From positions 230 through 64,229 of the forward strand of contig JAUMOL010000023.1 in NCBI GenBank assembly GCA_031295385.1: a stretch of DNA of 64,000 nt, given 5' to 3'. The stretch comes from Collinsella sp. Its GTDB lineage: Bacteria > Actinomycetota > Coriobacteriia > Coriobacteriales > Coriobacteriaceae. Shown here piece after piece: positions 77 to 59,165 of the stretch (positions are counted from its first letter, which is position 1; each line of letters opens with the position of its first letter). A program made the translations under genes and the position numbers. Under the pieces are notes generated by a model, which ran no database searches, had not been told where the DNA came from, and saw only the letters and a list, made by a program, of their open reading frames with translations.

Positions 77-1471
77 ATGTGCAATGTTTCGCTCAACGGT
101 ACGCAACCGTCCGATGCGTCCCTGCGCGTCCTGCGCGCGCTTGAGGCGGCTGGTCTTGAGGCTTGGTACGTGGGCGGTTGGGTGCGCGACGCCCTGATGG
201 GGTACCCCAGCCACGATGTTGATATGTGCTGTAGCGGCCTGTGGCAGGAGTCCAAAGCGGCGCTCGAGGCCGCCGGCATCGCGGTTGTGGAGTCGGGCAT
301 TAAATTTGGCGGAATCACGGCTATTTCCGATGGCGAGCGTATCGAGGTCACCACGTACCGTCTGGATGGCTTTTACACCGATGGTCGTCATCCCCAGAGT
401 GTGGAGCGTGCCGCCTCGCTCGAGGACGATCTGGCGCGCCGCGACTTTACCGTCAATGCCATGGCCTGGCATCCCGAGCGCGGGCTTGTCGACCGCTACG
501 ACGGCCAGGGTGATCTGGAGCGCAAGCTGATTCGCGCTGTCGGCGATCCCAAGCGTCGCTTTAACGAGGACGCCCTGCGCATGCTGCGTGCGGTGCGCTT
601 TGCCTGCCGTCTGGACTTTATGATTGAGCCCGAGACTAAGCGTGCGCTTGCCGAGTGCGCGCCGCTGCTTGATGCCGTGGCGCGTGAGCGTGTGGGTATT
701 GAGCTCGAGGGCATTCTTTCGACCGGTCATGGGGGAGACGCGATGCTCCGCTATCCCGAGCTCATCTGCGCCGCCGTGCCCGAGTTGGCAGCGGGTCGCG
801 GGTTTGATCAGCGCAGTGTCTATCATGCGTTTAACGTCTACGTGCATATTGCCCGTGTGCTGACGGTGGCGGGGGAGCTCGCGCTGTGTGACGGCGTCGC
901 GCCCTCGTCGAGCCTTATGTGGGCGGCGTTTTTGCACGATGTGTCCAAGCCCGAGTGCTTCACGGTCGACCATGCCGGTAGCGGACACTTCTACGGTCAT
1001 CCCGAGCTCGGCGCCAAGAAGGCGCGCGTCATTATGGATCGCCTGGCGCTCTCGCACGACTTGGTGCGCGACGTGTGTCTGCTCATCAAATACCATGACA
1101 AGCCGCTGCGCCCCGAGCGCTCCTGTCTGCTCAATATGATGCGCGCGCTTTCGGGTGAGGGCGTCGACACGGCCCGCCTGATTGACGAGCTCATGGACCT
1201 TAAGCGTGCCGACACACTTGGCAAGGCCCCGTCTTGCTTCTATTACGTTGAGACGATTGAGGAGATGCGCGCGATGGCGCACGAGCTGCTGAGGGCGGGG
1301 GAGCCCTATACGCTCAAGATGCTCGCCATCAACGGCGGCGACCTGATCCGTGCTGGAGTCAAGCCCGGGCCGGAACTGGGGCAGTTTCTCAACTCCGCCC
1401 TCGACGCCGTGATCGAAGACAACATTCCCAACGATCGCGAAGCTCTTTTGGTCCATCTCAACTTGAATTAG
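77..1471 (+). CDS. cca: CCA-adding tRNA nucleotidyltransferase (poly(A) polymerase/HD family)
   Basis: ORF 59..1471. The ATG at 77 is preceded by AGGAGG. Motifs: GGWVRDALMG, RDFTVNAM, and the HD-type FLHDVSKPE. Confidence 0.85.
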   Translation: MCNVSLNGTQPSDASLRVLRALEAAGLEAWYVGGWVRDALMGYPSHDVDMCCSGLWQESKAALEAAGIAVVESGIKFGGITAISDGERIEVTTYRLDGFYTDGRHPQSVERAASLEDDLARRDFTVNAMAWHPERGLVDRYDGQGDLERKLIRAVGDPKRRFNEDALRMLRAVRFACRLDFMIEPETKRALAECAPLLDAVARERVGIELEGILSTGHGGDAMLRYPELICAAVPELAAGRGFDQRSVYHAFNVYVHIARVLTVAGELALCDGVAPSSSLMWAAFLHDVSKPECFTVDHAGSGHFYGHPELGAKKARVIMDRLALSHDLVRDVCLLIKYHDKPLRPERSCLLNMMRALSGEGVDTARLIDELMDLKRADTLGKAPSCFYYVETIEEMRAMAHELLRAGEPYTLKMLAINGGDLIRAGVKPGPELGQFLNSALDAVIEDNIPNDREALLVHLNLN

Positions 1472-1598: not shown

Positions 1599-1675
1599 GG
1601 CCCGTTCGTCTAGCGGTTTAGGACGCCGCCCTCTCAAGGCGGAGATCACCAGTTCGAATCTGGTACGGGCTACCA
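1599..1675 (+). tRNA. tRNA-Glu (anticodon CTC), CCA encoded
   Basis: Cloverleaf read by eye. Acceptor stem GGCCCGT/ACGGGCT, anticodon stem CCGCC/GGCGG with loop CTCTCAA, T-arm GGTTCGAATC-like, and 3' ACCA. Confidence 0.9.
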
Positions 1676-3206: not shown

Positions 3207-3249
3207 TCTCATCTGTTGATGAATGCTCGCATATCGAAGGGACACGCCC

Positions 3250-3861
3250 ATGGCAACCAGCAAACCGCGTCTTGATCGTCGCATCGTTCGCAGCCGTAAT
3301 GCCATCCTTTCCGCTTTCGAGCGCCTGCTCATGGAAAAGCCGCTGGCAGACATTACGGTGAGTGCCATCGCGCGCGAGGCCAATGTCGACCGCAAGACCT
3401 TTTACGTTCACTTTGGTACGGTTGACGGCCTGCTCGATGCCATTGCCGTCGATGTGGTGGAGATGATTGTCGACTCGGTCGAGAAAACGCTTGCTTCAAT
3501 GGACGGCGACACCAATGAGCGCGCTCTTGGCGCGGCGGCGACCTTCTTTAAAACCGTTAACGAGGCACTGTGCAACAATTTGGTGCTCAATCGTCAGCTG
3601 ATCGAGAACATTCCGCTCGATGATTTTATGGCTCGTCTTCGTGCGCCGCTCGAGCACGAGATTGCCGAGCGCGATCTGCTGCCCCAAGGTCTCAAGGACG
3701 AGATGTTCGACTACTATCTGGCGTTTTTGCTGTCGGGTATTATCGGTATCTATCGCACGTGGGCATTGTCTGATGGCTCGGTTCCTATCGAGCGCGTCTC
3801 GGAGGTTGCCAACGACCTCACACTCAACGGCCTGTCGAGCCTGGAATCTCGCTTCGAATAG
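3250..3861 (+). CDS. TetR/AcrR family transcriptional regulator
   Basis: N-terminal HTH region: ITVSAIAREANVDRKTFYVHFGTVDGLL. Size about 200 aa. Confidence 0.85.
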   Translation: MATSKPRLDRRIVRSRNAILSAFERLLMEKPLADITVSAIAREANVDRKTFYVHFGTVDGLLDAIAVDVVEMIVDSVEKTLASMDGDTNERALGAAATFFKTVNEALCNNLVLNRQLIENIPLDDFMARLRAPLEHEIAERDLLPQGLKDEMFDYYLAFLLSGIIGIYRTWALSDGSVPIERVSEVANDLTLNGLSSLESRFE

Positions 3862-4048: not shown

Positions 4049-5482
4049 TTAATCGCCGTTTTTGAGCGTGCGGCCCTGCTTTTCGAACTTGTGCATGTCG
4101 CTATCGGCCATACCCTGTGACTTATCCTCGTGACGCTTGGCGTATAGCGGATCGTCGGAGTCGTTCCAGATGCGGTCGGCGACAGGTGACCATGCCTCGG
4201 CGGCAGCCTGGGTCTTTTCGCGCAGCTGCTCGGGTGACTCCTTCTCGATAAGATCGGTGCTCATTGCGCCACTCTCGGCAACCATTTTGGGTAGCACGTC
4301 GGGATTCTCGAGCATGGGGCATGGTTTGAGGTAGTTGTCGTTGAACGGCATGTTCTCGTAGTACTTCATAAAGAGGGGAGAGCGCAGCGCGTCGAGTAAG
4401 CTCACATCGTGGATGTTGGCGTTTGAGTAGTGGATGAACACGCACGGCTCCACGTCTCCGGCGGCGTTGATGTGCAGGTAGCGGCGGCCGCCGGCGATAC
4501 ATCCGCCTACAAACTCGCCGTCGTTTTGGAAGTCGAGCGTAAACAGCGGCTTCTTCTCACGCATTTCGCGGATAAAGTGATACATGTGCTCGCGCTGCTC
4601 GGGCGTGGGCATGAGCTCGGGGGTTGCATTGCGGCCAACCGGCATAAAGTGGAAGTACCAGCAGAAGAGTGCTCCCTTGCCGATCATCCAGTCCATGTTC
4701 TCCTCGGTAGCAACCGTATCGGCATTGGCGCTGGTCCAACAGGTGGAGATACCAAATGGCAAGTCGCGCTCGCGCAGGAGTTTCATGGCGTGCTCGATCT
4801 TTGCGTAGGTACCCTCGCCGCGACGGGCGTCGGTGGTGTGCTCATTGCCCTCGGCGCTGATGGCGGGGACAAAATTACCTACGCGAATCATATCGTCACA
4901 GAAGGCCTCGTCGATCAGCGTGGAGTTGGTAAAGCAGAGAAACACGCAGTCCTGATGTTTTTCGCAAATTCTGATCAGGTCGTGCTTGCGGACGAGCGGC
5001 TCGCCGCCGGTATAGATGTAGATATGCGTACCGAGCTCTTTGCCCTGCGTAACGATAGAGTCGATGTCTTCGAACGAGAGATTCTGCTTGTGGCCGTACT
5101 CGGCGGCCCAGCAGCCCGTGCAATGCAGGTTGCAGGCGCTCGTGGGATCGAGCAGGATGGCCCACGGAACGTTGCACTGGTACTTTTCGCGGTTCTTTTC
5201 CTGCTCTGGCCAAGCAAGCAGGTTGGCGTCGACAATGAGAGTCTTAAGCAGTTTGGTTCGCATCTGGGGATTAAGGCTGAACACACGCATGATCAGGTCA
5301 TACCAATTGCCGCGGCTCTTGATGACATTGGTGAATGCCTCTCGCTGTACAGGAAATACGCGATTGGGGACCAGCTTGTTCACGAGATCCATGATTTTGT
5401 CGATGTTTTCTTGCGGGTTGTCGTCGAGATAATCGATGAGCTTGTTAAGCGCTGCACGCTCTGCTGACTGTGTAAGCGACAT
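4049..5482 (-). CDS. Radical SAM protein with SPASM-like Cys-rich C-terminal region, function unknown
   Basis: CNLHCTGC (CX3CX2C) motif, the segment GGCIAGGRRYLHINAAGDVEPCVFIHYS, and KPCPMLENP. AAAGGA RBS before the ATG at 5482. Confidence 0.8.
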   Translation of the reverse strand: MSLTQSAERAALNKLIDYLDDNPQENIDKIMDLVNKLVPNRVFPVQREAFTNVIKSRGNWYDLIMRVFSLNPQMRTKLLKTLIVDANLLAWPEQEKNREKYQCNVPWAILLDPTSACNLHCTGCWAAEYGHKQNLSFEDIDSIVTQGKELGTHIYIYTGGEPLVRKHDLIRICEKHQDCVFLCFTNSTLIDEAFCDDMIRVGNFVPAISAEGNEHTTDARRGEGTYAKIEHAMKLLRERDLPFGISTCWTSANADTVATEENMDWMIGKGALFCWYFHFMPVGRNATPELMPTPEQREHMYHFIREMREKKPLFTLDFQNDGEFVGGCIAGGRRYLHINAAGDVEPCVFIHYSNANIHDVSLLDALRSPLFMKYYENMPFNDNYLKPCPMLENPDVLPKMVAESGAMSTDLIEKESPEQLREKTQAAAEAWSPVADRIWNDSDDPLYAKRHEDKSQGMADSDMHKFEKQGRTLKNGD

Positions 5483-5616
5483 GGGTATATCCTTTCACGT
5501 GTGCTTCATGTGTGATAATACCCACTTGTGGATTAAACGAAGTCTAAAGATTTGTAATGTGTCTATTCAACGAATCAATTTAATTTGGGGTGAAGCGTTA
5601 TACGCCGACACCTTCT

Positions 5617-5633
5617 AAGTTGCGGTGAAATAG
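5617..5633. repeat. Half copy (left arm only) of the AAGTTGCGGTGAAATAG element
   Basis: 17/17 identity to the left arm at 43587. No matching right arm nearby. Confidence 0.6.
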
Positions 5634-5670
5634 TGTCAGATGGGGATACGGACGATTTCTTGGGCCGCGC

Positions 5671-6885
5671 CTAGGCGTATCCATTGGAATCCTCCGATGC
5701 GCCTTCGCACGCTCGCATGACCTCGATACCATGTGAGCGTGCGAACTCGACGAGCTCTGCGTTGCGGGCGTTTATGGTGCCGAAGGCAGCGGGGCACACG
5801 ATAAGGCGCGCGCAGTGGACGAGGAGCTCTTTGGCGCGGGCTATGGTTTTATCCCCGATCGGCTCGAAGGCGCGCTCGGCCACGCATTCCGTCGCCAGGT
5901 CGCGCGCGAGCTCGCAGTCGATGTCCCCTTCGTGCAGAACGCCCGCGTAGAACGCCTTGCCCTGCCGGATGAGCTGGCGAAACACAGCCGACCCCGTACC
6001 TGCGCCGGCGATGACGAACGTGTGTGCATCGCCGTGTGGGTGCCCAATTTCTACGCTGCCGAAGCGCTCGTTGAAGGTTCCATGTTGAAGGCCGTAGAGC
6101 TCGCCAATCGTCTCGCGCGTGAATATGTCCTCGGGTGCGCCGGCGCGGAAGACCCGGCCGTCCTTCACGCAAATCACCTTGTCGGCGCTTTTCTGCGCGA
6201 GCTCGAGTTCGTGGATGGACATGATGACAGCAACATTCCGCGATTTCGCAAGGTGGCGAAGTATTCGCAGCAGGTCGATCTGGTAGCGGATATCGAGATA
6301 CGACGTGGGCTCATCGAGCACGAGCACACGCGGATCCTGCGCGATGGCGCGTGCGAGCATGACGCGCTGGCGTTGCCCGTCGCTTATCTGCATGAAGTCG
6401 CGCTCGGCGAGCCCTTCCACATGTGCGGTTTTCATGGCCTCGTCGACCCGATTATGGTCATCGGGCGTGAGTGTGCCCATTCGCCCGGTGTAGGGATGCC
6501 TTCCCGCCTCTACGATATCGCGGCAGGTGAGGAGCTCGGTCCGGGGGCGATCTGTCAGCATAACGGCAAGGTTCCTTGCGAACTCCGCCGTCTTCCATCG
6601 GGAAATCTCCCGCCCGTCGAGCTCGACCGTGCCGGCAAGCGGTGCCAGATGGCGTGTGATTGTTTTCAAGATGGTCGACTTGCCCGAGCCGTTCGGCCCG
6701 ATGAGCGCCACGACGTCGCCCGCGCGAACCTCCAGATCGACGCCTTCGACTACGACCTTCTTGTCGTAGCCCGCCGACAGGTCGCTTATGCGGAAAAGCG
6801 GCGCTCCGTCAGCCTGCGTTTCGACCGGGGTTTCGAGGTTCGACTCCCCTCCGAGCGTTTTGGGCTGCGGCACGAATTTCCCCAT
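5671..6885 (-). CDS. ABC transporter ATP-binding protein (FecE/BtuD-like) with an extra ~140-aa C-terminal domain
   Basis: Walker A GPNGSGKST, signature ISDGQRQRV, Walker B VLVLDEPTS. The last ~140 aa extend beyond a normal ~260-aa NBD. Confidence 0.85.
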   Translation of the reverse strand: MGKFVPQPKTLGGESNLETPVETQADGAPLFRISDLSAGYDKKVVVEGVDLEVRAGDVVALIGPNGSGKSTILKTITRHLAPLAGTVELDGREISRWKTAEFARNLAVMLTDRPRTELLTCRDIVEAGRHPYTGRMGTLTPDDHNRVDEAMKTAHVEGLAERDFMQISDGQRQRVMLARAIAQDPRVLVLDEPTSYLDIRYQIDLLRILRHLAKSRNVAVIMSIHELELAQKSADKVICVKDGRVFRAGAPEDIFTRETIGELYGLQHGTFNERFGSVEIGHPHGDAHTFVIAGAGTGSAVFRQLIRQGKAFYAGVLHEGDIDCELARDLATECVAERAFEPIGDKTIARAKELLVHCARLIVCPAAFGTINARNAELVEFARSHGIEVMRACEGASEDSNGYA

Positions 6886-7926
6886 CTACCTCACCCGCTT
6901 CTTCAACATGAGTGCGATAACCACCGGCGCGCCGAAGATGGCGGTGACGGCGCTGATGGAAAGCTCGACGGGGGAGAACAGCGTGCGTGCGATCAAATCG
7001 CAGCCCGCGCAGAAGATGGCGCCTCCCAAGAAGCACGCAGGAATCACGCGGATGGGCTTCGACGACTTCAGCGCCGACTTAACGAGATGCGGAACCGCGA
7101 TGCCTACGAACGACACCGGACCAGCGAACGCGGTCACGCAGGCGGAGAGCATGCTTGCTAGAAGGACGAGCACCACGCGGAAGCGTGCGACGTTCACGCC
7201 GACGCTTTTTGCGTAGGCTTCTCCCAGCTGGAAGGCGGAAAGGGGCTTCGATATCGCGAATACGCATGCGCTCACGGTGATCACCACGACCGCGATGACC
7301 GCGATGTCGTCCCAGCTCGAACCCGAGAAGCTACCCAAAGACCAGTTGTGCAGGTTCACGATGGACTGGTCGTCGGCGAAGGCGATGAGGAAGTTCGTCG
7401 CCGCCGAGCAGATGTATCCCACCATGACGCCCGCCACGATGAGCATGGCCATGGAACTTATGCGCCGTGCGATGAGGAGCACGAAGCCGATGGTGATAAG
7501 CGATCCCAGAAACGCTGCGGCCACCATGACCGGCGAGGACATGGCCTGGTTCGCGCCCAGAAGCACGATCATCGTAAGCGCGACGACGAACTTTGCGCCC
7601 GAGGAGACGCCCAAGATGAACGGGTCGGCGATGGGGTTGTTGAAAAACGTCTGCAGTAGGAACCCGGAAAGCGAAAGTGCCCCGCCGAGAAGCACGGCTG
7701 AAAGCACGCGCGGCAGGCGAATCTCCCAGATGACCTGGCTTTCCATGGAATTGGCCGCGCCGCCCGAAAGGATGCCGGGGATGTGGTCTGCTGGCACGAG
7801 CACGCTCCCGATGCACAGGTTGGCCCCGACGAGCACGATGAGGGCAACAGCGAGCAGCGCCGTCACGACGCGACACCGCGCGGCGCGCCCCGATTCGTCG
7901 TATGTCATGGAAAGCCGGCTTCTCAT
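6886..7926 (-). CDS. FecCD/BtuC-family ABC permease (iron-siderophore/cobalamin type)
   Basis: About 10 hydrophobic helices and the motif GPVSFVGIAVPHLV. The start is uncertain: ATG at 7926 or TTG at 7938. Confidence 0.85.
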   Translation of the reverse strand: MRSRLSMTYDESGRAARCRVVTALLAVALIVLVGANLCIGSVLVPADHIPGILSGGAANSMESQVIWEIRLPRVLSAVLLGGALSLSGFLLQTFFNNPIADPFILGVSSGAKFVVALTMIVLLGANQAMSSPVMVAAAFLGSLITIGFVLLIARRISSMAMLIVAGVMVGYICSAATNFLIAFADDQSIVNLHNWSLGSFSGSSWDDIAVIAVVVITVSACVFAISKPLSAFQLGEAYAKSVGVNVARFRVVLVLLASMLSACVTAFAGPVSFVGIAVPHLVKSALKSSKPIRVIPACFLGGAIFCAGCDLIARTLFSPVELSISAVTAIFGAPVVIALMLKKRVR

Positions 7927-7930
7927 GACG

Positions 7931-9502
7931 CTAGCCAAGCTTCCTCAGATAATGGAAGTCGCTCGCGTCATCGCCGGTGAACGCCCCGTGCAGCTCGTCG
8001 ATAATGTCGGCGGTAGAAGTCATCTGCTGGTACACGTCGGCGCTTGTGACCCAGACGTTGCCGTTCTTTACAGCTTTGAACTGCGACAATAGCGCGTTTT
8101 TGCCTACGAAGTCTTTCAAGGTGGCAACCGATTCGTCGATGGTGCCGTTGTAGACGATGATGTCGGCATCCTTCGCCGTCGCGTAGAAGCGCTCCATTTC
8201 GAGCGTTACTGACGAACCTGACGTCGACGCCGTCTGCGCGTCATCGAGCGCGTAGCTGCCGCCTGCAAGCTCGATCATCTGCGCCACGTAGTCGCCCGCC
8301 CGCCGCGTGACGGCGGCCCCGTTCGAGTTAATGTAGAAATACGCCACGGTTTTACCTGACGACGCGAGCCTCGACGTTTGCTCGACGCGGGCCTTCTGCT
8401 CGTTGAACAGGTGCGCGGCCTCGTCTTCCTTGTCGAACAGGACGCCGAAAAGCTTAATCCACTCGACGCGCCCGAGTGCTTCGGGCTCGCTCGACGACTG
8501 TTCGGTGAGCACGACGAGCCCGAGCTTCTGCAGCTTTTCCTTCACATCGGGCGTGTGGTTGATCATGGTGTTCTCGATGGCGAGCGTGCAGCCCGAGGCC
8601 GATATTCGCTCGTAGTCGGGTGCGCTGTACTTGCCGCCGTAGGCGATCGCCCCACTTTCGAGCGCGCTTTTGAAGCCCCCGACCGAGCAATCGTCGGCCT
8701 TCGTGCCCGACATGAGGATATTGTCGTTCGCATCGAGCGCGTCGACCAGGCACATCGTCGCCGACGACACGAGGTACACCTTGTCGGCGGGGCGCCTTAT
8801 GACCGCGATGTCAGAGCTCAACCCATCAGGTACCTTCGCATCTTGCGGTACCACGAGGAAGCGCTCCCCGTTCGAAACGCAGATAAGCCGCAGGCCGCCT
8901 TCGAACTCGTCGACAGTGAAGTGCTTGGCGTATTCAAGCTGAAGCGTCCCCGTCGGCTCCCAGCCGCAGCCCAAATCTGGGTTGTGGAAGTCGGCCGCGG
9001 CGCTTGAAGCCGTTCCCGCGGGGGAGTCGCCGCTTGCATCGTCGCCCGATTTCTCCTTCATGGTGGATGAGTCGAAGTGGAGCGTGTAGTCGATGGTGTG
9101 CGGCGTCGACATGGCGACGGTCTCGGCCGACACGGCGATGTCCTCGTCGAGCGTGACGGGTATCTCGAACGTGGAGTTGCCGCCGTCGTTTACGGGCGCG
9201 TAGTCCACGCCGTCGACGGTCATTTTGTCGTAGTTCGAACTCGACCAGGTGATGGTCGCGGTGTAGGTGTCGCCATCCTTCACAATTGTGGTGGGTGAGG
9301 CGATGCTTGCGCGCCCTGACCCGCCGGAGAGCGAGACGCTCACAGTGTATTCCTGAGAGCCTGCCGTGCCACCGGTCGCGTTCGGGCTCGCACTGCACCC
9401 CGCGAAGGGAAGCGCGAACAGGGCGACGAGAACGCAGGCGATCGCGCTCACCGCGATGCTGCGACGCTTCCTGCTTTCCCCCTTGGGAAGAATCGACCGC
9501 AT
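7931..9502 (-). CDS. Substrate-binding lipoprotein (BtuF/FecB-type periplasmic binding fold) with an extra N-terminal ~125-aa module
   Basis: Signal peptide plus lipobox LPFAGCS. The C-terminal ~330 aa look like a class III SBP. The N-terminal module is paralogous to the adjacent small lipoprotein. Confidence 0.75.
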   Translation of the reverse strand: MRSILPKGESRKRRSIAVSAIACVLVALFALPFAGCSASPNATGGTAGSQEYTVSVSLSGGSGRASIASPTTIVKDGDTYTATITWSSSNYDKMTVDGVDYAPVNDGGNSTFEIPVTLDEDIAVSAETVAMSTPHTIDYTLHFDSSTMKEKSGDDASGDSPAGTASSAAADFHNPDLGCGWEPTGTLQLEYAKHFTVDEFEGGLRLICVSNGERFLVVPQDAKVPDGLSSDIAVIRRPADKVYLVSSATMCLVDALDANDNILMSGTKADDCSVGGFKSALESGAIAYGGKYSAPDYERISASGCTLAIENTMINHTPDVKEKLQKLGLVVLTEQSSSEPEALGRVEWIKLFGVLFDKEDEAAHLFNEQKARVEQTSRLASSGKTVAYFYINSNGAAVTRRAGDYVAQMIELAGGSYALDDAQTASTSGSSVTLEMERFYATAKDADIIVYNGTIDESVATLKDFVGKNALLSQFKAVKNGNVWVTSADVYQQMTSTADIIDELHGAFTGDDASDFHYLRKLG

Positions 9503-9506
9503 GGCG

Positions 9507-10040
9507 TTACTTCAGTGCGTCGGCGCGCAGATCGACGCCGGCGGATTCGAACACGAGCGTGCGGTCGTACCACTGCTCTTTTCTAATACTCCACGCGGCG
9601 CAGGCGGTGTCCTCGTCGAGCGCTTCAACGGGCACGTCGTAGGTGTATTTGCCTTCCGCGTTTTCCACATAGGGGATGAAGTCGGCCTCGCTCGCGGCGG
9701 CAGCCTCGTCGCCCGTGCCCATGAAGAGCTTGCCGTAGCCCGTGCCGGAAAGCGTCATCACGCAGTGCATGGAGCCGTTTTCCACGATGAGCTGGGCGTC
9801 CACAATCCTGAACATGTTCGAGCTGGAATCTACGGTGATCGGATAGGTGCCGTCGGCTACCTTGTCGGCGGTGATGGGGGCAGCGCTTGCGCCCTCGGGC
9901 GCATCGGCCGCCTGTTCGGTCTTTTCCTGGGAATCGGCATCGCTTGCCTTTGCGCTGTCGATTGAATTTCCGCCGCAGCCGGCGAGCGAGAAAGCGAAAA
10001 GCGCCGCCGACAGGGCGAAGGCGAGGGTTTTCTTCAACAT
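9507..10040 (-). CDS. Small lipoprotein, unknown function, paralogous to the N-terminal module of the downstream SBP
   Basis: ATG at 10040 after AAAGGAA. Signal peptide plus lipobox SLAGCGG. Pattern shared with the SBP module: Y-x-[IV]-[TS]-V, PV-x-LDED, TL-x-F-[ED]-S. Confidence 0.6.
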   Translation of the reverse strand: MLKKTLAFALSAALFAFSLAGCGGNSIDSAKASDADSQEKTEQAADAPEGASAAPITADKVADGTYPITVDSSSNMFRIVDAQLIVENGSMHCVMTLSGTGYGKLFMGTGDEAAAASEADFIPYVENAEGKYTYDVPVEALDEDTACAAWSIRKEQWYDRTLVFESAGVDLRADALK

Positions 10041-10066
10041 GGAGGGGTTCCTTTCAATCGCTTCGA

Positions 10067-10148
10067 CCGCCCGCGCCGTGCGGTGGGCGGGCGGGATGCG
10101 AATGCAACGGGCATGCGCCGTCAGTCGGGGAAGGCGCATGCCCGTTGC
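10067..10148 (-). other. Two tandem GC-rich stem-loops inside the operon (between the cbiK-like and lipoprotein genes)
   Basis: Perfect 16-bp stem GCAACGGGCATGCGCC/GGCGCATGCCCGTTGC (10104..10148) and 8-bp stem CCGCCCGC/GCGGGCGG (10067..10094). Neither is followed by a U-run. Confidence 0.6.
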
Positions 10149-10184
10149 ACGGGGACGCGACCGGCGCCCCCGTGCGCGGCGAGT

Positions 10185-11111
10185 TTACAGCTTGGCGATG
10201 GCGTCGTCCACGTGCGAGACGTAGATGTCGTCGACCGCGACGTTCTGTCCCAGACCCTGGAGCAGGCACGTCACTTCGAAGCCGGCGGCCACGAACTTCG
10301 CAGCCCAGCTGTCGGGGTCGGTCTCGTCTGCCATGTCGTTGTTCGCGTGGTCGCCCGCGACCACCATGAACGGCGCTAGCACGGCCTTCTTGTAGCCTGC
10401 GGCGCTCGCGGCGGCGATAACATCCTCGCAGGTCGGTTCAGCCTCGACGGTGCCGACGAAGAACTGCGTCAAGCCCTCGTTCTTAAACACTTCCTGCATC
10501 TTGGCATAGTCGGCGTTGGAATCGGCTTCGGTGCCGTGGCCCATGAGGCACAGCGCCGTCTTGCCGTCGTCGAAGGACGCCATGTTCTCCTTAATGGCTG
10601 CGGCCACCTTCTTGTAGTCGTCGTCGGAGGTGAGCAGCGGGTCGCCGAGCGAGATCTTGTCGAACTTGTCGGCGTACTTGTCGAGCTCGTCTTTCACGTC
10701 GGTGTATTCCAGGCCACCCATGAGATGCGTCGGCTGCACGACGATTTCCTTCACGCCGTCTTCCACGCAGCGGTCGAGCGCTTCGGTCATGTTGTCGATC
10801 GTGATGCCGTCGCGCTTCTTCAGCTTGTCGATGATGATCTGCGCGGTGAAGGCGCGGCGGATGTCGAAGTCCTGCCAGTACTTCTCGCGGATAGCGTCTT
10901 CGATGGCGCCGATGGTGATGTGGCGCGAGTCGTTGTAGCTCGTGCCGAAGCTCGTGACGAGGATGACCGGCTTCACGGCCTTCTCCTTTTCACTCGATTT
11001 CTCGGAACTCGCGGTGGTGTTGGAGCAGCCCGCGAGCGCGACTCCGGCGAGCGCGACGGCTCCGGTTGCTGCGGCGCCCATGAAGCCGCGGCGTGACATC
11101 TGGTCGGACAT
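10185..11111 (-). CDS. CbiK-family (anaerobic cobaltochelatase fold) protein with Tat signal and lipobox, predicted extracytoplasmic
   Basis: ATG at 11111 after GAGGAAAGGA. N-terminus MSRRGFMGAAATGAVALAGVALAGCS. CbiK His motifs LMGHGTEA and VVAGDHANNDM. Confidence 0.8.
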   Translation of the reverse strand: MSDQMSRRGFMGAAATGAVALAGVALAGCSNTTASSEKSSEKEKAVKPVILVTSFGTSYNDSRHITIGAIEDAIREKYWQDFDIRRAFTAQIIIDKLKKRDGITIDNMTEALDRCVEDGVKEIVVQPTHLMGGLEYTDVKDELDKYADKFDKISLGDPLLTSDDDYKKVAAAIKENMASFDDGKTALCLMGHGTEADSNADYAKMQEVFKNEGLTQFFVGTVEAEPTCEDVIAAASAAGYKKAVLAPFMVVAGDHANNDMADETDPDSWAAKFVAAGFEVTCLLQGLGQNVAVDDIYVSHVDDAIAKL

Positions 11112-11214
11112 GATTTTTCCTTTCCTCGGTTTGCCGGTCCCCCGGCGACAGTTGCTTGTCGGCACAAGCGAAAGAAAAGCGCACCCCTCGGGGTTCACAA
11201 GGAGCTAACGCCAC

Positions 11215-11365
11215 GGCGATGCCGTGAGGAAAAGGCGAAGCAGTCTGGCTTGGGGCGCGAGGCGGTTCGCCCGCGCGTCCTATACAGTAATGTCCCTTGC
11301 CCAGGATTCCCACCTGGTTCCCTCCGCAAGCCAGCGCGGGCTGTGCGGGCGCCGCGCCGGTCATT
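11215..11365 (-). promoter_or_regulatory. Probable cobalamin (B12) riboswitch in the leader of the cbiK-like/ABC operon
   Basis: The minus strand reads CTTGCGGAGGGAACCAGGTGGGAATCCTGGGCAAGGGACATTACTGTATA ... CCCCAAGCCAGACTGCTTCGCC. This matches the GGGAA / GGTG-AATCC / ACTGTA core and has a degenerate B12 box. Boundaries are approximate. Confidence 0.6.
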
Positions 11366-11569
11366 TCCTTTTATCCGATTGTCATATGCTCGTTGCCGAA
11401 TCTTTTACTATGATAGTGGGCACTTGTGAACGTGTCAAAGCCAGGGCGGGCGGCATTGCGCCTCCTGCCTGCGTATTTGCGCCGATTGCCGCCGCAGGCG
11501 CCGTGTTTTGCCCGCTGCGCGAATGGCGGCGTAAACGGTTGCGATGAGAAACGGGAAGGGAAGGCTCGG

Positions 11570-12361
11570 ATGATTCATATCGTTGGCGCAGGCTCGGGCG
11601 CCGCCGACCTTATCACGCTGCGCGGGGCGCGCCTTCTGCGCGCAGCCGACGTGGTCGTTTGGGCGGGAAGCCTTGTGAACCCCGAGCTGCTCGCTGAGTG
11701 CAAGGAATCCTGCATCGTCTACGACAGCGCGCACATGACCTTGGAGGAAGTGCTCGACGTGATGTGCGCGGCAGATGCGCGGGGCGAGGACGTGGTGCGC
11801 CTGCACACGGGCGACCCGTGCCTGTACGGCGCCATCCAGGAGCAGATGGACGCGCTCGACGCGCGCGGCGTGGACTACGAGGTGGTGCCCGGCGTGTCGA
11901 GCTTTTGCGGTGCCGCGGCGGCGCTTCGCCAGGAATACACGCTGCCGGGAATCAGCCAGTCGGTCGTGATCACGCGGCTTTCCGGACGTACCCCCATGCC
12001 CGCGGGCGAGGGCATGCGCACCATGGCGGAAAGTGGCTCGACTATGGTCATCTTCCTGAGCTCGGGTATGCTCGCCGAGCTTTCCGCCGAGCTTTTGGCC
12101 GCGGGCCGCAGCTCCGACGAGCCGGCCGCGCTCGTGTACAAGGCTACCTGGCCTGAGGAGCGCGTGGTGCGATGCACAGTGGGCACGCTCGCCGATGCGG
12201 GCGCGCGAGAGGGCATCGACCGCACGGCGCTCGTGGTGGTGGGCCGCGTGCTCGGAGCTCGCGGCGGGCTTGCGCACGGCGGCGTGCAAGCGGAGTCGTA
12301 CGAACGCAGCAAGCTTTACGACCCTTCGTTTGCCACGGGGTATCGGAAGGCGAGCAGCTAG
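11570..12361 (+). CDS. cbiF: Cobalt-precorrin-4 C11-methyltransferase
   Basis: ATG at 11570 after GGGAAGG. Motifs IHIVGAGSGAADLITLRG and LHTGDPCLYGA (tetrapyrrole methylase). Confidence 0.9.
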   Translation: MIHIVGAGSGAADLITLRGARLLRAADVVVWAGSLVNPELLAECKESCIVYDSAHMTLEEVLDVMCAADARGEDVVRLHTGDPCLYGAIQEQMDALDARGVDYEVVPGVSSFCGAAAALRQEYTLPGISQSVVITRLSGRTPMPAGEGMRTMAESGSTMVIFLSSGMLAELSAELLAAGRSSDEPAALVYKATWPEERVVRCTVGTLADAGAREGIDRTALVVVGRVLGARGGLAHGGVQAESYERSKLYDPSFATGYRKASS

Positions 12362-12362
12362 C

Positions 12363-13547
12363 GTGGCCTTCGAGCACTACATATATACCGGGACGACCCG
12401 CCTGCGCTGCGGCTACACCACGGGGAGCTGCGCCGCGCTCGCGGCGAAGGCGGCCTGCGAGATGCTCTTGTCACGAAAGCCCGTCGGCCTCGTGTCGATC
12501 GTCACCCCCGGCGGGCTGTCCGTCGAGGCGAACGTGGTCGACGCATGCATCGGCGAGGGGTGCGCCCAGTGCGCCGTTCGAAAGGACGCAGGCGATGATG
12601 CCGATGTGACTGACGGCGTACTCGTGTACGCGCACGTGGAACATGCGGGGTCGGGCACGGGTGCTGCGGGCGGCAAGGACGTGCCCGCGTGTGAATCGGA
12701 AGTTTCCGTCGATGGCGGCGTGGGCGTGGGGCGCGTGACGTTGCCCGGGCTCGAGCAGCCGGTGGGGGCGGCCGCCATCAACGCGACGCCGCGCGCGATG
12801 ATCACTTCGGCGGTGCGCGAGGTGTGCGCCGCGCACGGCTTTTCTGGAGATATTGCTGTGACGATTTCGGTACCCGAGGGTGTGGCCCTTGCCGAAAAGA
12901 CCTTCAACCCGCACCTGGGGATAGAGGACGGCATCTCCATCCTGGGAACGACGGGCATCGTCGAGCCGCGCAGCCTCGCTGCCTTGCGTGACAGCATCGA
13001 GCTCGAGATTCGGCAGCATGCGGCTATGGGGCGGCGCGGAGTCGTGCTCACGCCCGGCAACTACGGCGGGCAGTTCATCTCGGGGCATTTCCACCTAAAC
13101 GGTGCGCCGGTGGTCTTCATCTCCAACTTTGTGGGCGATGCGATTGATTGCTGCGTTCGCGAGGGATTCACCAATGTCCTTCTTGTGGGACACATCGGCA
13201 AGCTGGTGAAGGTCGCTGGCGGCATCATGGACACCCATTCGCGTACCGCCGACTGCCGCGCGGAGATTCTGGCCGCCCACGCGGCCTTGGCCGGCGCGGG
13301 CGCGAAGACCGTGCGCGAGATCATGTCGTCGGTCACGACCGCGGCGGCGCTCGAGGTAATCGAGGCCGCCGGCGTGGGGGACGCTGTGCGCGCTTCGCTC
13401 GCTGCGGCAATCGAGGACAGGTTGCGCCGTCGCGCGGCGGGCGCATGCGACATCGCCGCGGTCGTGTTCGACGCCGAGCGCCGCGAGCTTTTCCGCACGT
13501 CGGGCGCCGATGCAGTTATCGGGAAATTGGGGGCGACGTATGAGTAA
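12363..13547 (+). CDS. cbiD: Cobalt-precorrin-5B C1-methyltransferase
   Basis: GTG at 12363 after GGAAGG. Motifs LRCGYTTGSCAA and ILGTTGIVEP. Confidence 0.9.
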   Translation: MAFEHYIYTGTTRLRCGYTTGSCAALAAKAACEMLLSRKPVGLVSIVTPGGLSVEANVVDACIGEGCAQCAVRKDAGDDADVTDGVLVYAHVEHAGSGTGAAGGKDVPACESEVSVDGGVGVGRVTLPGLEQPVGAAAINATPRAMITSAVREVCAAHGFSGDIAVTISVPEGVALAEKTFNPHLGIEDGISILGTTGIVEPRSLAALRDSIELEIRQHAAMGRRGVVLTPGNYGGQFISGHFHLNGAPVVFISNFVGDAIDCCVREGFTNVLLVGHIGKLVKVAGGIMDTHSRTADCRAEILAAHAALAGAGAKTVREIMSSVTTAAALEVIEAAGVGDAVRASLAAAIEDRLRRRAAGACDIAAVVFDAERRELFRTSGADAVIGKLGATYE

Positions 13548-13773
13548 AGGCGTGCTGTACGGGGTGCGCCGCGCAATCGGCTGGCCGGGGACGAAGGTGG
13601 TCATGAAGGCGCGCCGCTCGCTTGCGGACACGAAGCGCTTCCTTTGCGAGGAGGGCGCCTTCGACGGTGCCGAGCTCGTAGAGGACTGTGGGCTTCCGGG
13701 CGAGCGCGTGTACCGCTCGCTCGACGATGTGCCCGATCGGGGCAGCTACTTCTCGACGATGGTGGTGCGCTAG
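13540..13773 (+). pseudogene. cbiL: Internally deleted remnant of cobalt-precorrin-2 C20-methyltransferase (cbiL), 77 codons
   Basis: The N-terminus MSKGVLYGV resembles the CbiL start. It joins directly to a CbiL-like C-terminus (VVMK...GLPGERVYRSLDDVPDRGSYFSTMVV). About 150 aa of the methylase core are absent. Confidence 0.6.
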
Positions 13774-14907
13774 ATGAGGGTTTCCTGCATAGCGTTCACT
13801 GAGAGGGGGTATGCGTTGGCGGAGCGCACCGCACGCGCGCTTTCCGATTGCGCGCAGACAGGTGAAGATGACCCTGGCTGGGACGTTTCCGTTTCGCGCG
13901 GGTTCGGCGAGGGGAAGGTCGACCTGCGCGCATGGACGGCGCTCGCGTGGGAAGCGTCGGACGCGCTTCTGTTCGTGGGCGCGGCGGGCATCGCCGTGCG
14001 GGCTATCGCGCCGTATGTCGCCTCGAAGGCAAACGATCCCGCGGTTGTGGCGATCGACGAGGCGGGGCGCTTTGTCGTCCCGCTTTTGTCGGGGCATTTG
14101 GGCGGTGCGAACGAGCTGGCGCAAACTGTGGCACGCGTGGAAGGGGTCATCCCCGTTATCACCACGGCGACTGACGTCCGCGGCGTGTGGGCGGTGGATA
14201 CGTGGGCGCGCCGTGTGGGGCTCGCCGTTTCGAATCCCGAGGCCATCAAGCGAGTGTCAGCGCGGCTGCTTTCGGGCGGGCGCGTGGCGCTCTATTCCGA
14301 CATGCCGATTTCGGGACAGCCGCCTGAGGGGGTTGACATTGCGTCAGACCGCGCTCGGGCCGATATCGTCGTGTCGCCGTTCGCTGGCGCGAACGCAGGT
14401 GCGTCCGTTTGCGCGGCGGAGACAACGGGCGAGGTCGTGCTCGCCGGTGAGACGGGGAAGCCGGCGGGCGTGCGGGCGCAGGTGCCTGCGTCCGAGCCGC
14501 TTCGCCTTGTCGTGCCCTGCATCGTTGCGGGTATAGGGTGCCGTCGCGGTGCGTGCGCCGAAGCGATCGGGGAGGCGTTTCTTCTCGCGTGCGGGCAGGC
14601 GGGCATCTCGCCTTCGGCCGTGCGCGAGGTGGCGACGATCGACGTGAAGGCGCACGAGGAGGGTCTGCTCGCCTTCTGCCGCGCGCGCAATATCCCGCTT
14701 GCGACGTATTCCGCAGAGGAGTTGTCGCAGGTCGAAGGCAGCGTTTCGCCATCTGATTTCGTGCGCGCGACGGTGGGGGTCGACAACGTGTGCGAGCGCG
14801 CGGCGCTCGCGGACGGGGGCAAACTTATCTTCCCGAAGCTCGCTCACGGCGGCGTGACCGTCGCGTTTTCAAAGGTAACTATCGAACTTTCGTTTAAGGA
14901 GCGGTGA
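13774..14907 (+). CDS. cbiG: Cobalt-precorrin-5A hydrolase
   Basis: N-terminal CIAFTERG and C-terminal VAGIGCRRG. ATG immediately after the preceding stop. Confidence 0.85.
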   Translation: MRVSCIAFTERGYALAERTARALSDCAQTGEDDPGWDVSVSRGFGEGKVDLRAWTALAWEASDALLFVGAAGIAVRAIAPYVASKANDPAVVAIDEAGRFVVPLLSGHLGGANELAQTVARVEGVIPVITTATDVRGVWAVDTWARRVGLAVSNPEAIKRVSARLLSGGRVALYSDMPISGQPPEGVDIASDRARADIVVSPFAGANAGASVCAAETTGEVVLAGETGKPAGVRAQVPASEPLRLVVPCIVAGIGCRRGACAEAIGEAFLLACGQAGISPSAVREVATIDVKAHEEGLLAFCRARNIPLATYSAEELSQVEGSVSPSDFVRATVGVDNVCERAALADGGKLIFPKLAHGGVTVAFSKVTIELSFKER

Positions 14908-15650
14908 TGGGAAAGCTCTTCGTGGTGGGGATCGGCCCGGGCGGCCCCGACGGCATGACGATTGCGGCCCGGCGCGCGCTCGAGGCGGCGGACATCGTTG
15001 TGGGGTACACGAAATACGTGGAGCTCGCGCTCGCCGCCGTGCCCGACGCGGCGCATCTCGCGACGCCGATGATGCACGAGGTCGAACGGTGCCGCCTGGC
15101 GCTTTCGCGCGCGCAGAGCGGAGAAGCCGTGGCGCTCGTGTGCAGCGGTGACGCGGGCGTGTACGGCATGGCGAGCCCCGTGCTGGAGCTTGCGGAGGAC
15201 TACCCCGATGTAGACGTGGAAGTTATCGCCGGGGTCACCGCGGCTCAGAGCGGGTCGGCGGTGCTCGGCGCCCCGCTTGCCCACGACTTCGCGGTCGTGT
15301 CGCTCTCTGACCTGCTCACGCCGTGGGAGGTCATCGAGCGCAGGCTCGCCGCCGTGGCGAGCGCCGACTTCTGCATCTGTTTGTACAACCCGCGCAGCAG
15401 AAAGCGCGCCGACAGGCTCTCGCGCGCGGCGAAGATTATGCTCGAATGGAAGGCCCCCGACACGCTCTGCGGCTGGGTACGCAACATCGGGCGCGAGGGG
15501 CAGCAGTCGGGCATGTGCAGGCTCTCCGAGCTGGGGGAGATCGACGCCGACATGTTCACCACCGTGTTCGTTGGCAACGCTGACACGAAGCTCGTAGGCG
15601 GCCGTATGGTCACGCCGCGCGGGTATCGGGAGATTCCATGCGAAAGGTAA
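14907..15650 (+). CDS. cbiH: Cobalt-precorrin-3B C17-methyltransferase
   Basis: Motifs KLFVVGIGPGGPDGMT and SGDAGVYGMASP. The start overlaps the cbiG stop (GTGATG). Confidence 0.9.
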   Translation: MGKLFVVGIGPGGPDGMTIAARRALEAADIVVGYTKYVELALAAVPDAAHLATPMMHEVERCRLALSRAQSGEAVALVCSGDAGVYGMASPVLELAEDYPDVDVEVIAGVTAAQSGSAVLGAPLAHDFAVVSLSDLLTPWEVIERRLAAVASADFCICLYNPRSRKRADRLSRAAKIMLEWKAPDTLCGWVRNIGREGQQSGMCRLSELGEIDADMFTTVFVGNADTKLVGGRMVTPRGYREIPCER

Positions 15651-16987
15651 CGATCATCGGGGCGGGGCCCGGAAACCCCGACTTGCTCTCGCGCGCGGCG
15701 CTCGACGCGATCGGCATCGCCGACGTGGTCATCGGCGCTCATCGCGCGCTTGCCGGCATCGACGTGCCGCCCGACGTGGTGAGATGCGAGCTCGTGAAGA
15801 CGGCGGACATCGCCGCCGCGCTCACCGATGCGGCGTCGTGGCGGCGCGCCGTGGTCGTGATGACGGGCGATGTGGGGCTGTTCAGCGGCGCGCGCCGCCT
15901 GGTGGAGGCGCTCTCCGGCGACGCGCAGGTGGACGTGCGCGTCATTCCCGGCATAAGCTCAGCGTCTTATCTCGCCGCGCGCCTCGCGCGTCCATGGCAG
16001 GATTGGCGCTTCGCGAGCGCTCACGGCGTGGCGTGCGACATCGTGGCCGAGGCCGAGCGCGCAGGTGAGCTCTTTCTCGTCACGTCGGGCGGGGAAGACC
16101 CCTCGCGGCTTTCGGGCGAGCTTGTGCAGGCGGGCTTCGGGGACGCGCGTGTGACGGTGGCCGAGCGCCTGTCGTACCCCGACGAGCGCATCACCTGCGC
16201 GACCGCAAGTGAAATCGCAGGTCAGACGTTCGACGACTTGAACGTGATGCTTATCGAGCCCGCAGGCGGCGCCGTGTCGCCTGCGGGCTCTGGCGCAGCC
16301 TCCGAGGCACCGGCCGGCGCGTCTGCGCCCGCGGCGGCTTCTTCCGCGGCGGACTCTGCGGGCGCATCTCGCGCCGCGAGCTCCCGCTGGCCGTACGCTT
16401 CCTCGGGAATTCCCGACGAGCTCTTCATCCGCGGCGACGTTCCCATGACCAAGCAGGAGGTGCGCGCCGTCGCGCTCGCGAAGCTTCGCCTTACCGCGAC
16501 CGACACCGTGTGGGACGTCGGCGCCGGCACGGGGAGCGTGTCGATCGAGGCGGCGCTCGTCGCGCGAGCGGGGTCGGTATGGGCGGTTGAGCGCAGCGCG
16601 GCCGGCGTGCGGCTCATCCGGGAGAACGTGGCTGCATTCGGGTGCGGCAACGTGCATGCAGTCCCCGGTGTCGCCCCCGAAGCGCTCGCGAAACTGCCCG
16701 TCCCCGACGCCGTGTTCGTCGGCGGGAGCGCGGGCGAGCTTCCCTCCATCGTGGAGGCGGCGCTCGAGAAGAACTCGCAGGTTCGTCTGTGCGTGCCATG
16801 CGTCACCGTTGAGACGCTCACCGAGGCGTGCGCGCTCCTCTCGGGTTCGCGCTTTAAGGGGTTCGAGGCGTGCCAGGTGTCGGCCGCCCGCGCCGAGGCT
16901 GTAGGCTCGCACCATCTTATGAAGGCGCAAAACCCCGTGTTCCTCGTCAGCGCGCGTGGTGCAGGTGGGGAAGGCGGTGCCCGGTGA
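15638..16987 (+). CDS. cbiET: Fused cobalt-precorrin-6B/7 methyltransferase-decarboxylase (CbiE-CbiT, CobL-like)
   Basis: N-terminal VTIIGAGPGNPDLLS (CbiE) and C-terminal VWDVGAGTGSVSIEAA (CbiT SAM site), joined by an A/S/G-rich linker. Confidence 0.85.
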   Translation: MRKVTIIGAGPGNPDLLSRAALDAIGIADVVIGAHRALAGIDVPPDVVRCELVKTADIAAALTDAASWRRAVVVMTGDVGLFSGARRLVEALSGDAQVDVRVIPGISSASYLAARLARPWQDWRFASAHGVACDIVAEAERAGELFLVTSGGEDPSRLSGELVQAGFGDARVTVAERLSYPDERITCATASEIAGQTFDDLNVMLIEPAGGAVSPAGSGAASEAPAGASAPAAASSAADSAGASRAASSRWPYASSGIPDELFIRGDVPMTKQEVRAVALAKLRLTATDTVWDVGAGTGSVSIEAALVARAGSVWAVERSAAGVRLIRENVAAFGCGNVHAVPGVAPEALAKLPVPDAVFVGGSAGELPSIVEAALEKNSQVRLCVPCVTVETLTEACALLSGSRFKGFEACQVSAARAEAVGSHHLMKAQNPVFLVSARGAGGEGGAR

Positions 16988-59089: not shown

Positions 59090-59165
59090 GGGGGCGTAGC
59101 TCAGCTGGGAGAGCGCTTGACTGGCAGTCAAGAGGTCAGGGGTTCGATCCCCCTCGTCTCCACCA
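59090..59165 (+). tRNA. tRNA-Ala (anticodon GGC), CCA encoded
   Basis: 76 nt. Acceptor stem GGGGGCG with G3:U70, anticodon stem CTTGA/TCAAG with loop CTGGCAG, and T-arm GGTTCGATCC. Confidence 0.9.

Follow-up and report, generated by a model that had tools for sequence, protein, structure and literature searches.

A cobalamin-riboswitch-type leader and NEAT-like and CbiK-like surface lipoproteins in a predicted corrinoid uptake operon of Collinsella

The DNA considered here, which we call the window, is a stretch of 64,000 nucleotides from Collinsella sp. (assembly GCA_031295385.1, contig JAUMOL010000023.1, positions 230 to 64,229 of the forward strand), and our subject is an operon of five genes on its minus strand, g1 to g5, all co-directional and spanning positions 11111 down to 5671 in the open reading frame listing of the window, together with the leader that precedes them. 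What is new in this operon is an ATP-binding cassette (ABC) uptake system of the B12 regulon equipped with NEAT-like and CbiK-like surface accessories, which is widespread in Gram-positive gut bacteria; the kind to which it belongs, riboswitch-led ABC uptake, is known. Our reading, in which we have a little more confidence than doubt, is that it serves the cobalamin-riboswitch-controlled surface capture, relay and ABC import of corrinoids (cobamides, incomplete corrinoids and related cobalt-tetrapyrroles) in a Gram-positive bacterium, the ligand being a prediction. With 80 genome loci 99–100% identical in g2, the organism can be placed in the Collinsella aerofaciens group. In the source databases the operon proteins carry only the names 'hypothetical protein', 'ABC transporter substrate-binding protein' and 'iron complex transport system substrate-binding protein'.

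The first gene, g1 (10185..11111, minus strand), encodes an exported CbiK-fold lipoprotein of 308 amino acids (aa), whose N-terminus, MSDQMSRRGFMG...VALAGC, contains a twin-arginine (Tat) motif, SRRGFMG, followed by a lipobox, LAGC. The second, g2 (9507..10040, minus strand), encodes a small lipoprotein of 177 aa in which a predicted NEAT-fold module, module A, occupies residues about 55–170; the reading frame as listed covers 9507..10139 and, since the homologues are 177 aa long, the true start is probably at 10040 (MLKKTLAF...SLAGC). The product of g3 (7931..9502, minus strand) is a lipoprotein of 523 aa with the lipobox FAGC, composed of a NEAT-like N-terminal module, module B (9053..9364, minus strand, residues about 47–150, with H135-x3-Y139 in the final strand), a low-complexity linker and a class-III (Peripla_BP_2) binding domain at residues 245–488. 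It is followed by g4 (6886..7938, minus strand), encoding a FecCD/BtuC-type permease of 350 aa, and by g5 (5671..6885, minus strand), encoding an ABC ATPase of 404 aa with a C-terminal MJ0874-type domain of ~135 aa (nucleotides 5671..6078). The initial annotation, made from the letters alone, had already listed the five co-directional genes and had named the second a small lipoprotein, the third a binding lipoprotein of BtuF/FecB type and the fourth a FecCD permease; all are present at the coordinates that it gave, the lipoboxes of g2 and g3 and the Peripla_BP_2 domain included, with the start of g2 now moved.

Upstream of g1 the best promoter-like site in 5400..11650 is of the sigma-70 type (11410..11438, minus strand; TTGACA, a 17-nt spacer and TATCAT, 11/12 matches) and lies ~35 nt upstream of a short cobalamin-riboswitch-like aptamer (11219..11375, minus strand) with the core GGGAACCAGGUGGGAAUCCUGGGCAAGGGACAUUACUGU ... 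AAGCCAGACUGC and without a long P6 extension. The core strings of such a leader are present, namely the GGGAA..GGUG..AAUCC hairpin, ACUGU and a B12-box-like AGCCAG (AAGCCAGACUGC). Between the aptamer and the ribosome-binding site of g1 (GAGGAAAGGAAAAAUC AUG) there is a terminator-like hairpin with a U-tract (11173..11205, minus strand; GCUCCUUGUGAACCCCGAGGGGU GCGCUUUUCU), a candidate expression platform. In its anatomy the leader matches a transcription-attenuating riboswitch, which would suggest the corresponding function.

That this leader is a cobalamin riboswitch had been proposed in the initial annotation, and the strings quoted there are indeed found; its score with the Rfam family RF00174, by contrast, does not bear the proposal out. 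At the gathering score of 31.5 bits RF00174 finds no match anywhere in the 64-kb window, and a permissive scan of 10900..11700 yields 16.0 bits (E 0.12) at 11255..11365 on the minus strand, in an alignment in which the long P6 extension of the model has shrunk to a few bases. The case for the leader is a comparative one. At the equivalent position, the orthologous leaders of the Coriobacteriia loci L088 and L086 score 31.0 and 25.6 bits with RF00174. An alignment of 6 Coriobacteriia leaders has 32 common pairs, of which 93.2% are paired as against 82.4% after column shuffling and 39–53% when slid, and compensatory changes occur at 10 pairs, some of them in the short P6 stem and in the GGUG...AAUCC hairpin; because only three of the lineages are independent, this covariation support is moderate. 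The module-A scan of the genome collection gave near-identical Collinsella loci only, whose leaders (98.5–100% identity) were uninformative as a source of covariation. A leave-out covariance model, R2, built from L086, L088 and L094 only and with the window excluded, finds 11215..11376 on the minus strand at 76.8 bits (E 2.4e-18) as its sole strong match in the 64 kb, and weakly matches the canonical RF00174 site of L084 (E 0.039); the model R1 scores the window leader at 141 bits. The short variant without the long P6 is found in L086 (6627..6755), L088 (6723..6861), L092 (4589..4737), L093 (4593..4747) and L094 (4731..4869).

In the Firmicutes the riboswitch check covered 24 loci, and RF00174 precedes the orthologous operon in all of them, that is in 4/4 loci from genomes or assemblies (54.8–90.1 bits) and in 20/20 diverse metagenome loci (77.6–117.9 bits). 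These last belong to a set of 80 from a Firmicutes-first metagenome scan, so that the label 'Firmicutes' is that of the scan and not a taxonomic assignment of the loci. In one metagenome locus, L121, the riboswitch has upstream of it a match to a group II intron domain (879..953; RF00029, 47.3 bits). Given the scores of related leaders, the covariation, the R2 match and the RF00174 matches of the Firmicutes orthologues, the window leader is more than a chance resemblance, and the comparison supports a real, conserved short variant of the cobalamin-riboswitch type.

One could argue that the leader in Collinsella is a decayed, non-functional remnant, with the operon always switched on or controlled by a different regulator and the transporter serving any one of the functions considered here. 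The low RF00174 score and the loss of the long P6 extension would agree with this, as would the absence of a riboswitch-like leader from the related operons of L081, where the operon comes after cbiJ, and L095. However, the leader is 98.5–100% conserved in 77 Collinsella loci, its helices are kept by compensatory changes in three Coriobacteriia lineages, it still has its core motifs and the B12-box-like AAGCCAGACUGC, and a terminator-like hairpin follows the aptamer; moreover, functional short cobalamin riboswitches without a P6 extension are known (class II or AdoCbl-variant). We regard decay as highly unlikely.

The genomic surroundings differ between the two groups of bacteria. The order CbiK-lipoprotein, module(s), binding protein, permease and ATPase-MJ0874 is kept in Coriobacteriia and in 80/80 Firmicutes metagenome loci, wherever the contig suffices, and the Collinsella clusters of operon proteins hold thousands of member sequences. 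In Coriobacteriia the operon stands divergent from, or after, a cbi/cob cluster, and it adjoins cbi/cob genes in the window as well as in L081, L083, L086, L088, L090, L092, L093 and L094. In the window the divergent cobamide-biosynthesis cluster (11573..27418, plus strand) comprises cbiF, D, G, H, ET, A, cobT, S, U/C, cbiB, cobD, cbiP, cbiC and cbiJ, an arrangement relative to the operon that recurs in L088, L092, L093 and L094. Within that cluster, which was examined by itself rather than with the rest of the genome, there is no cbiL, no cytoplasmic cbiK or cbiX and no cbiMNQO. In L088, L093 and L094 a cbiL-sized methylase lies between cbiD and cbiG. The plus strand ahead of cbiF has no riboswitch-like match, so that within the window the transporter operon alone possesses such a leader. 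In L081 (12512..16531) the operon is succeeded by genes for a PocR sensor kinase and an AraC-type regulator, and these by microcompartment and B12-dependent diol-dehydratase (pdu) genes; in L095 (6133..8171) the same two regulators come after the operon and the locus ends before any pdu gene. Taken as a general rule, adjacency to cbi genes fails in the Firmicutes metagenome loci, in which the operon is a free-standing riboswitch unit.

The product of g1 matches the Pfam family CbiK (PF06180) at 262.7 bits (E 4e-78; gathering score 26.2), and its nearest relatives in the Protein Data Bank (PDB) are Salmonella enterica CbiK (1qgo, 5e-44), Porphyromonas gingivalis FetB (9b86, 4e-37) and the periplasmic CbiK of Desulfovibrio vulgaris, CbiKP (2xvx, 8e-33). 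It retains the strings GHGT and VAGDHANNDM, and the positions aligned to the GHG, VE(S/A)xP and GDHAxNDM motifs of S. enterica CbiK, which we take to hold the metal-binding His145, Glu175 and His207, are conserved both in g1 and in all exported CbiK homologues of the operon. The equivalog for the biosynthetic sirohydrochlorin cobaltochelatase CbiK, NF047852, is not reached (224.9 bits against a cut-off of 400). A lipoprotein signal is found on 10/10 operon CbiK orthologues, being of the Tat type in Coriobacteriia (SRRxF with LAGC or close variants, TGC and AAC) and of the Sec type in Firmicutes, and L084 encodes nearby an additional CbiK of 271 aa that has no signal. The position aligned to His96 of CbiKP, presumably a haem ligand there, is Thr in g1 and is not conserved. 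The exported CbiK-fold protein of the initial annotation, with both His motifs, SRRGFMG and LAGC, is thus upheld, and the survey of neighbourhoods of signal-bearing CbiK homologues that it had proposed has returned the conserved gene order together with lipoprotein signals on every operon CbiK.

An exported protein with an apparently intact chelatase site suggests another scheme, that of a cobaltophore, in which the exported CbiK would insert Co2+ into an extracellular tetrapyrrole (a porphyrin or isobacteriochlorin from the environment, or an intermediate that the cell secretes) and the modules and importer would fetch the product for cobamide synthesis or cobalt supply. Such a scheme would explain at once the intact chelatase and a cbi cluster that has neither a cobalt transporter nor a chelatase nearby, and all three motif positions are kept by the exported homologues. 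B12 riboswitches on cobalt transporters are common, and FecCD-type importers take chelates and not free ions. The exported homologue FetB catalyses the insertion of metal into tetrapyrroles (PMC13065792), and cobalt import is commonly regulated via B12 feedback (PMC7689651). On the other side, there is no known extracellular acceptor tetrapyrrole, a cytoplasmic chelatase and a cobalt transporter may sit elsewhere in the genome, L084 has both types of CbiK, and most Firmicutes loci do not stand beside cbi genes. Since the scheme also demands more steps than simple corrinoid salvage and is more speculative, we consider it unlikely.

Modules A and B are homologous to one another (BLASTP E 7e-5; profile–profile hhalign 97.3% probability, E 2.4e-11, 99 columns), which confirms the duplication of the g2 module within the g3 lipoprotein proposed in the initial annotation. 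The fold was not seen at that stage and emerged from the structure modelling that had been suggested there. An AlphaFold2 model of g2, based on 56 sequences, has a pLDDT above 94 over residues 55–170, and in a Foldseek search of the PDB ranks 1–19 are all NEAT domains (Hbp2-N2, IsdA, IsdH, IsdC, IsdB and Hal) or the haem-transfer protein Shp, with probabilities of 0.99–1.00, target-normalised TM scores of 0.21–0.64 (0.41–0.64 for single-domain targets) and a best E-value of 9e-4. Judged from the model and these top 19 matches, the module is a divergent NEAT fold. The g3 model likewise has a beta-sandwich at residues 50–150. The divergence is evident in the Pfam NEAT family (PF05031, gathering score 32.8 bits), which matches neither g2 nor g3 and is borderline for other family members (P0115 at 35.7 bits in the B region, P0061 at 34.6, others at 19–31). 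By sequence, g2 finds in the PDB only T-cell-receptor matches with E about 1, which are chance, and its NCBIfam match to PplA, at 21.8 bits (E 9e-5) where the cut-off is 325, was rejected, for it covers the signal peptide and linker region.

The two modules differ at the positions that would correspond to the YxxxY motif of NEAT domains. Among 36 homologues of module B H135 is invariant and Y139 near-invariant, some members having Tyr-x3-Tyr, while in module A the aligned YxxxY positions are Q and R and the conserved features are an invariant WYDR, an SSSxMF string and Met residues. In other taxa the modules stand alone in small lipoproteins or in proteins with a membrane anchor, or are combined into A–B fusions, A–A tandems and, as in g3, B joined to a binding protein; there are also arrays, with up to nine copies in proteins that reach 2538 aa, and some of these end in Peripla_BP_2. 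Among P0241–P0251 (for example P0242 with 1965 aa, P0244 and P0245) some have 4–9 copies of module A and some end in Peripla_BP_2. By analogy, the multi-copy proteins resemble the multi-NEAT surface receptors of haem systems, and free, fused and arrayed arrangements of this sort would be typical of relay receptors. The module-A family amounts to 1303 representatives at 50% identity.

The remaining parts constitute, within a single operon, a set of the BtuFCD type, that is a FecCD permease, an ABC ATPase and a class-III binding protein, although equivalog-level similarity to BtuC, BtuD or BtuF is not reached by this importer. The binding domain of g3 matches Peripla_BP_2 (Pfam, 1.7e-31) and, as a single sequence, has Vibrio cholerae BtuF (5ysc, E 0.002) as its sole match in the PDB. 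A Foldseek search with the full g3 model (pLDDT 85.6) failed as a test of ligand, siderophore, haem and B12 binders all scoring at about 1e-11 to 1e-10. The permease g4 matches Pfam FecCD (6e-81) and, as its best NCBIfam entry, BtuC NF003001 (210 bits, below the cut-off of 334). For g5, which matches ABC_tran (2e-31), the best NCBIfam entry is NF007082, 'corrinoid ABC transporter ATPase' (252.8 bits, below the cut-off of 537), an archaeal-type profile of 402 positions that covers residues 29–368 and so runs into the C-terminal domain. That domain was described in the initial annotation as ~140 unexplained residues; the extra stretch, of ~135 residues, is real, but it does have a family, PF27219 (MJ0874), which precomputed tables assign to the C-terminal domain of all orthologous ATPases, and NF007082 covers it in part. 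The domain is conserved in 11 loci, and its profile, run against the PDB and a copy of Pfam that did not contain PF27219, returned a spurious designed-repeat match only and no family.

It is at this point that haem has to be considered. In a haem or porphyrin uptake system resembling Isd/Hbp, the NEAT-like lipoproteins would pass their ligand to an IsdE-like binding protein and thence to the FecCD importer, while the CbiK-fold lipoprotein would bind or dechelate haem as proposed for IhtB/FetB. Several results weigh against the corrinoid reading, and a number of them are also what speaks for haem. To our knowledge every characterised NEAT domain binds haem or haemoproteins, and the fold is accompanied by the borderline Pfam NEAT scores of the family. 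The (H/Y)xxxY of module B lies at what we assume to be the expected site of the haem-iron tyrosine motif YxxxY of NEAT domains, in a register taken from secondary structure and not from superposition. A 36-sequence profile of g3 finds in the PDB Lmo2184 (5joq, 1e-8), which we take to be a member of the Listeria Hbp haem locus, ahead of IsdE (0.02) and BtuF (0.25), and since the binding-protein profile is thus nearest to IsdE-type haem binders and not to BtuF, the haem alternative stays alive. Haem or (metallated) porphyrins are, moreover, what FetB and CbiKP, both exported homologues of CbiK, bind (PMC13065792, PMC12094164). To these may be added that a corrinoid receptor would have no explanation for keeping a complete chelatase active site, that an equivalog-level NCBIfam cut-off is reached by 0/5 operon proteins, that the leader by itself stays below the RF00174 threshold, and that a cbi gene lies within 3.5 kb of the operon in 1/80 Firmicutes metagenome loci and in none of the other 79.

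Set against haem is, above all, the control of the operon: a cobalamin riboswitch on 24/24 tested Firmicutes loci and its variant in Coriobacteriia, regulators of B12 functions and not of iron or haem. Likewise, the genes that adjoin the operon are cbi/cob and pdu genes. At the level of residues, IsdE and Lmo2184 have a PHG/AHG motif, presumably with the IsdE haem ligand His229, at a place where the g3 family has N/T and the motif is not conserved, the position of the presumed haem ligand His96 of CbiKP is not conserved either, module A has no YxxxY pair, and TIGR03659, the IsdE equivalog, gives 21.4 bits with g3 against a cut-off of 298.65. Haem uptake is the main rival on grounds of fold, with no account of the B12 control, and we judge it quite unlikely.

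We return, then, to corrinoids. Cobalamin riboswitch control places the operon in the B12 regulon. Type-II (FecCD) importers with a class-III binding protein carry chelates or macrocycles, and the riboswitch control taken together with an importer of this type makes corrinoid uptake the most economical reading. The best NCBIfam entries of the permease and the ATPase, and BtuF as the single-sequence match of the binding domain, also speak for it. The parts themselves are of the haem-uptake type, with a surface side that would be built like a haem relay. A precedent exists in Bacteroidetes, where Hmu-like operons of haem type with cobalamin riboswitches have been read by their authors as cobalamin-related and not haem-related (PMC10100974); the corrinoid reading offered here follows the same logic. 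In the initial annotation the operon had already been read as a surface capture and import system for corrinoids or related metallo-tetrapyrroles, haem uptake being named as the alternative, and this reading fits the conserved gene order, the 24/24 Firmicutes RF00174 matches, the adjacency to cbi/cob genes in Coriobacteriia and the lipoprotein signals, the ligand remaining a predicted one.

The corrinoid reading could operate as follows. At low cobamide levels, to judge from the anatomy of the leader, transcription from 11438..11410 would read through and the five genes would be expressed, whereas at high cobamide levels the ligand-bound aptamer would favour the terminator-like hairpin. On the outer face of the membrane there would be three lipoproteins, the CbiK-fold g1, module A (g2) and g3 with its module B on a flexible linker. 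By analogy with the Isd/Hbp haem relays, a planar metallo-macrocycle would be bound by the NEAT-like modules and handed on to the binding domain of g3, which would dock on the FecCD permease, the ATPase powering import. The CbiK-fold protein would most likely be an additional receptor for cobalt-tetrapyrroles, binding them as it would a product, or might (re-)metallate or demetallate scavenged macrocycles outside the cell, and the C-terminal MJ0874 domain of g5 may be a regulatory module. The scheme starts from what the analysis shows, namely gene content, export signals, folds, the kinship of the two modules, the conservation of the operon and its association with cobalamin riboswitches; we infer what the ligand is, in which direction it is handed on and what the CbiK-fold protein and the C-terminal domain do. 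A bolder version, which is possible although we would not lean on it, holds that modules A and B are corrinoid-binding domains, and as such the first NEAT-fold proteins with a physiological ligand other than haem, and that together with an extracytoplasmic, catalytically competent CbiK, an exported chelatase that captures or metallates cobalt-tetrapyrroles outside the cell, they constitute a Gram-positive counterpart of the BtuG/BtuH relay of Bacteroides.

Five known systems share parts with this operon, each in a different respect. The CbiKP locus of D. vulgaris likewise has an exported CbiK-fold protein with chelatase residues, an importer of the BtuFCD/FecCD type and a cobalamin riboswitch upstream, and in Desulfovibrio a B12 element regulates cbiK-cbiL and btuCDF (PMC545781). 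That system is Gram-negative and periplasmic, whereas here a Tat or Sec lipoprotein would sit on a monoderm surface; NEAT-like modules and a module-fused binding protein, both present here, have not been reported there, and the presumed haem ligand His96 has its counterpart in a Thr of g1. The Iht system of P. gingivalis (IhtA–E, IhtB being FetB) also has a CbiK-fold surface lipoprotein, whose operon encodes in addition a binding lipoprotein, a permease and an ATPase (PMC12094164), and FetB, the structural relative of g1 already mentioned, has demonstrated chelatase activity (PMC13065792). For g1, CbiKP and FetB are the closest precedents. Unlike the Collinsella operon, Iht includes a TonB-dependent receptor and lacks NEAT-like proteins, and a review that mentions no riboswitch treats it as a system for haem, iron or Mn-porphyrin (PMC12094164).

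The Isd/Hbp systems (IsdA/C/H and IsdE-IsdF; Hbp2 and Lmo2184 in Listeria) come closest as regards the modules and the binding protein, having NEAT-fold surface modules, single or arrayed, encoded beside a FecCD permease and a class-III binding lipoprotein; the nearest structures are Hbp2-N2, IsdA, IsdH-N3 and IsdC for the fold and Lmo2184 for the binding protein. They differ in anchoring (by sortase there, by lipoprotein or transmembrane segment here), in the ligand residues (YxxxY there, absent from module A and HxxxY in module B here, the PHG/AHG position of IsdE and Lmo2184 not being conserved) and in control (by iron there, by a cobalamin riboswitch here, where no search for Fur/DtxR sites was made), and they have neither the CbiK-fold partner nor the MJ0874 domain of the ATPase. 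As a concept, B12-riboswitch-controlled corrinoid uptake in which accessory surface lipoproteins feed an ABC importer is known from BtuFCD and the BtuG/BtuH/BtuB/BtuF relay of Bacteroides (PMC13616437). The accessory folds here, NEAT-like and CbiK-like, are unrelated to BtuG and BtuH, and there is no outer membrane or TonB receptor. Finally, the archaeal-type corrinoid ATPase (NF007082/PRK09536) has a similar C-terminal extension and the same architecture as g5, without being its equivalog (252.8 against 537 bits). In the open-access literature we found no description of this operon, nor any paper that connects NEAT-like domains with corrinoids or a cobalamin riboswitch.

Downstream of the operon, on the same strand and 188 nt from the ATPase gene, there is a gene for a radical SAM/SPASM protein of 477 aa (4049..5482, minus strand), whose best NCBIfam matches, all far below threshold, are the tetrapyrrole-modifying NirJ2, AhbD and AhbC. 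As a sixth member of the operon it was rejected, since outside Collinsella none of the loci has a homologue of it beside the operon. In Collinsella itself the gene may share a transcript with the operon, its product acting on an imported tetrapyrrole, or there may be no connection. A TetR-family regulator (3223..3861, plus strand) is divergent from the radical SAM gene. Two tRNA genes lie elsewhere in the window, at 1599..1672 and at 59090..59162 (plus strand).

What these findings mean depends in part on the ligand. Competition for cobamides shapes gut communities, and the known machinery for scavenging them at the cell surface, BtuG, BtuH and BtuB, is specific to Bacteroidetes; we know of no comparable surface capture step in Gram-positive bacteria. 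The operon is conserved in Collinsella, which is among the abundant gut Actinobacteria, and in many Firmicutes. Whatever it carries, it joins two folds known elsewhere from haem capture (NEAT) and from the metallation of tetrapyrroles (CbiK), and its short leader shows that RF00174 at the gathering score overlooks this regulon in Coriobacteriia, the variant scoring 16–31 bits, so that annotation of the B12 regulon in this class needs a dedicated model. If the ligand is haem, a B12 riboswitch over haem uptake would itself be unexpected. If it is a corrinoid, the chemistry of the NEAT fold would be wider than haem, the operon would be a concrete candidate for B12 piracy by Gram-positive bacteria, and the long-puzzling exported CbiK homologues (CbiKP and FetB/IhtB) would be re-framed as transport parts of the B12 regulon. 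Because the module-A family is large, with its 1303 representatives, and includes giant multi-module surface proteins, modules that bind corrinoids could amount to a major and so far overlooked way in which bacteria of the human gut compete for B12.

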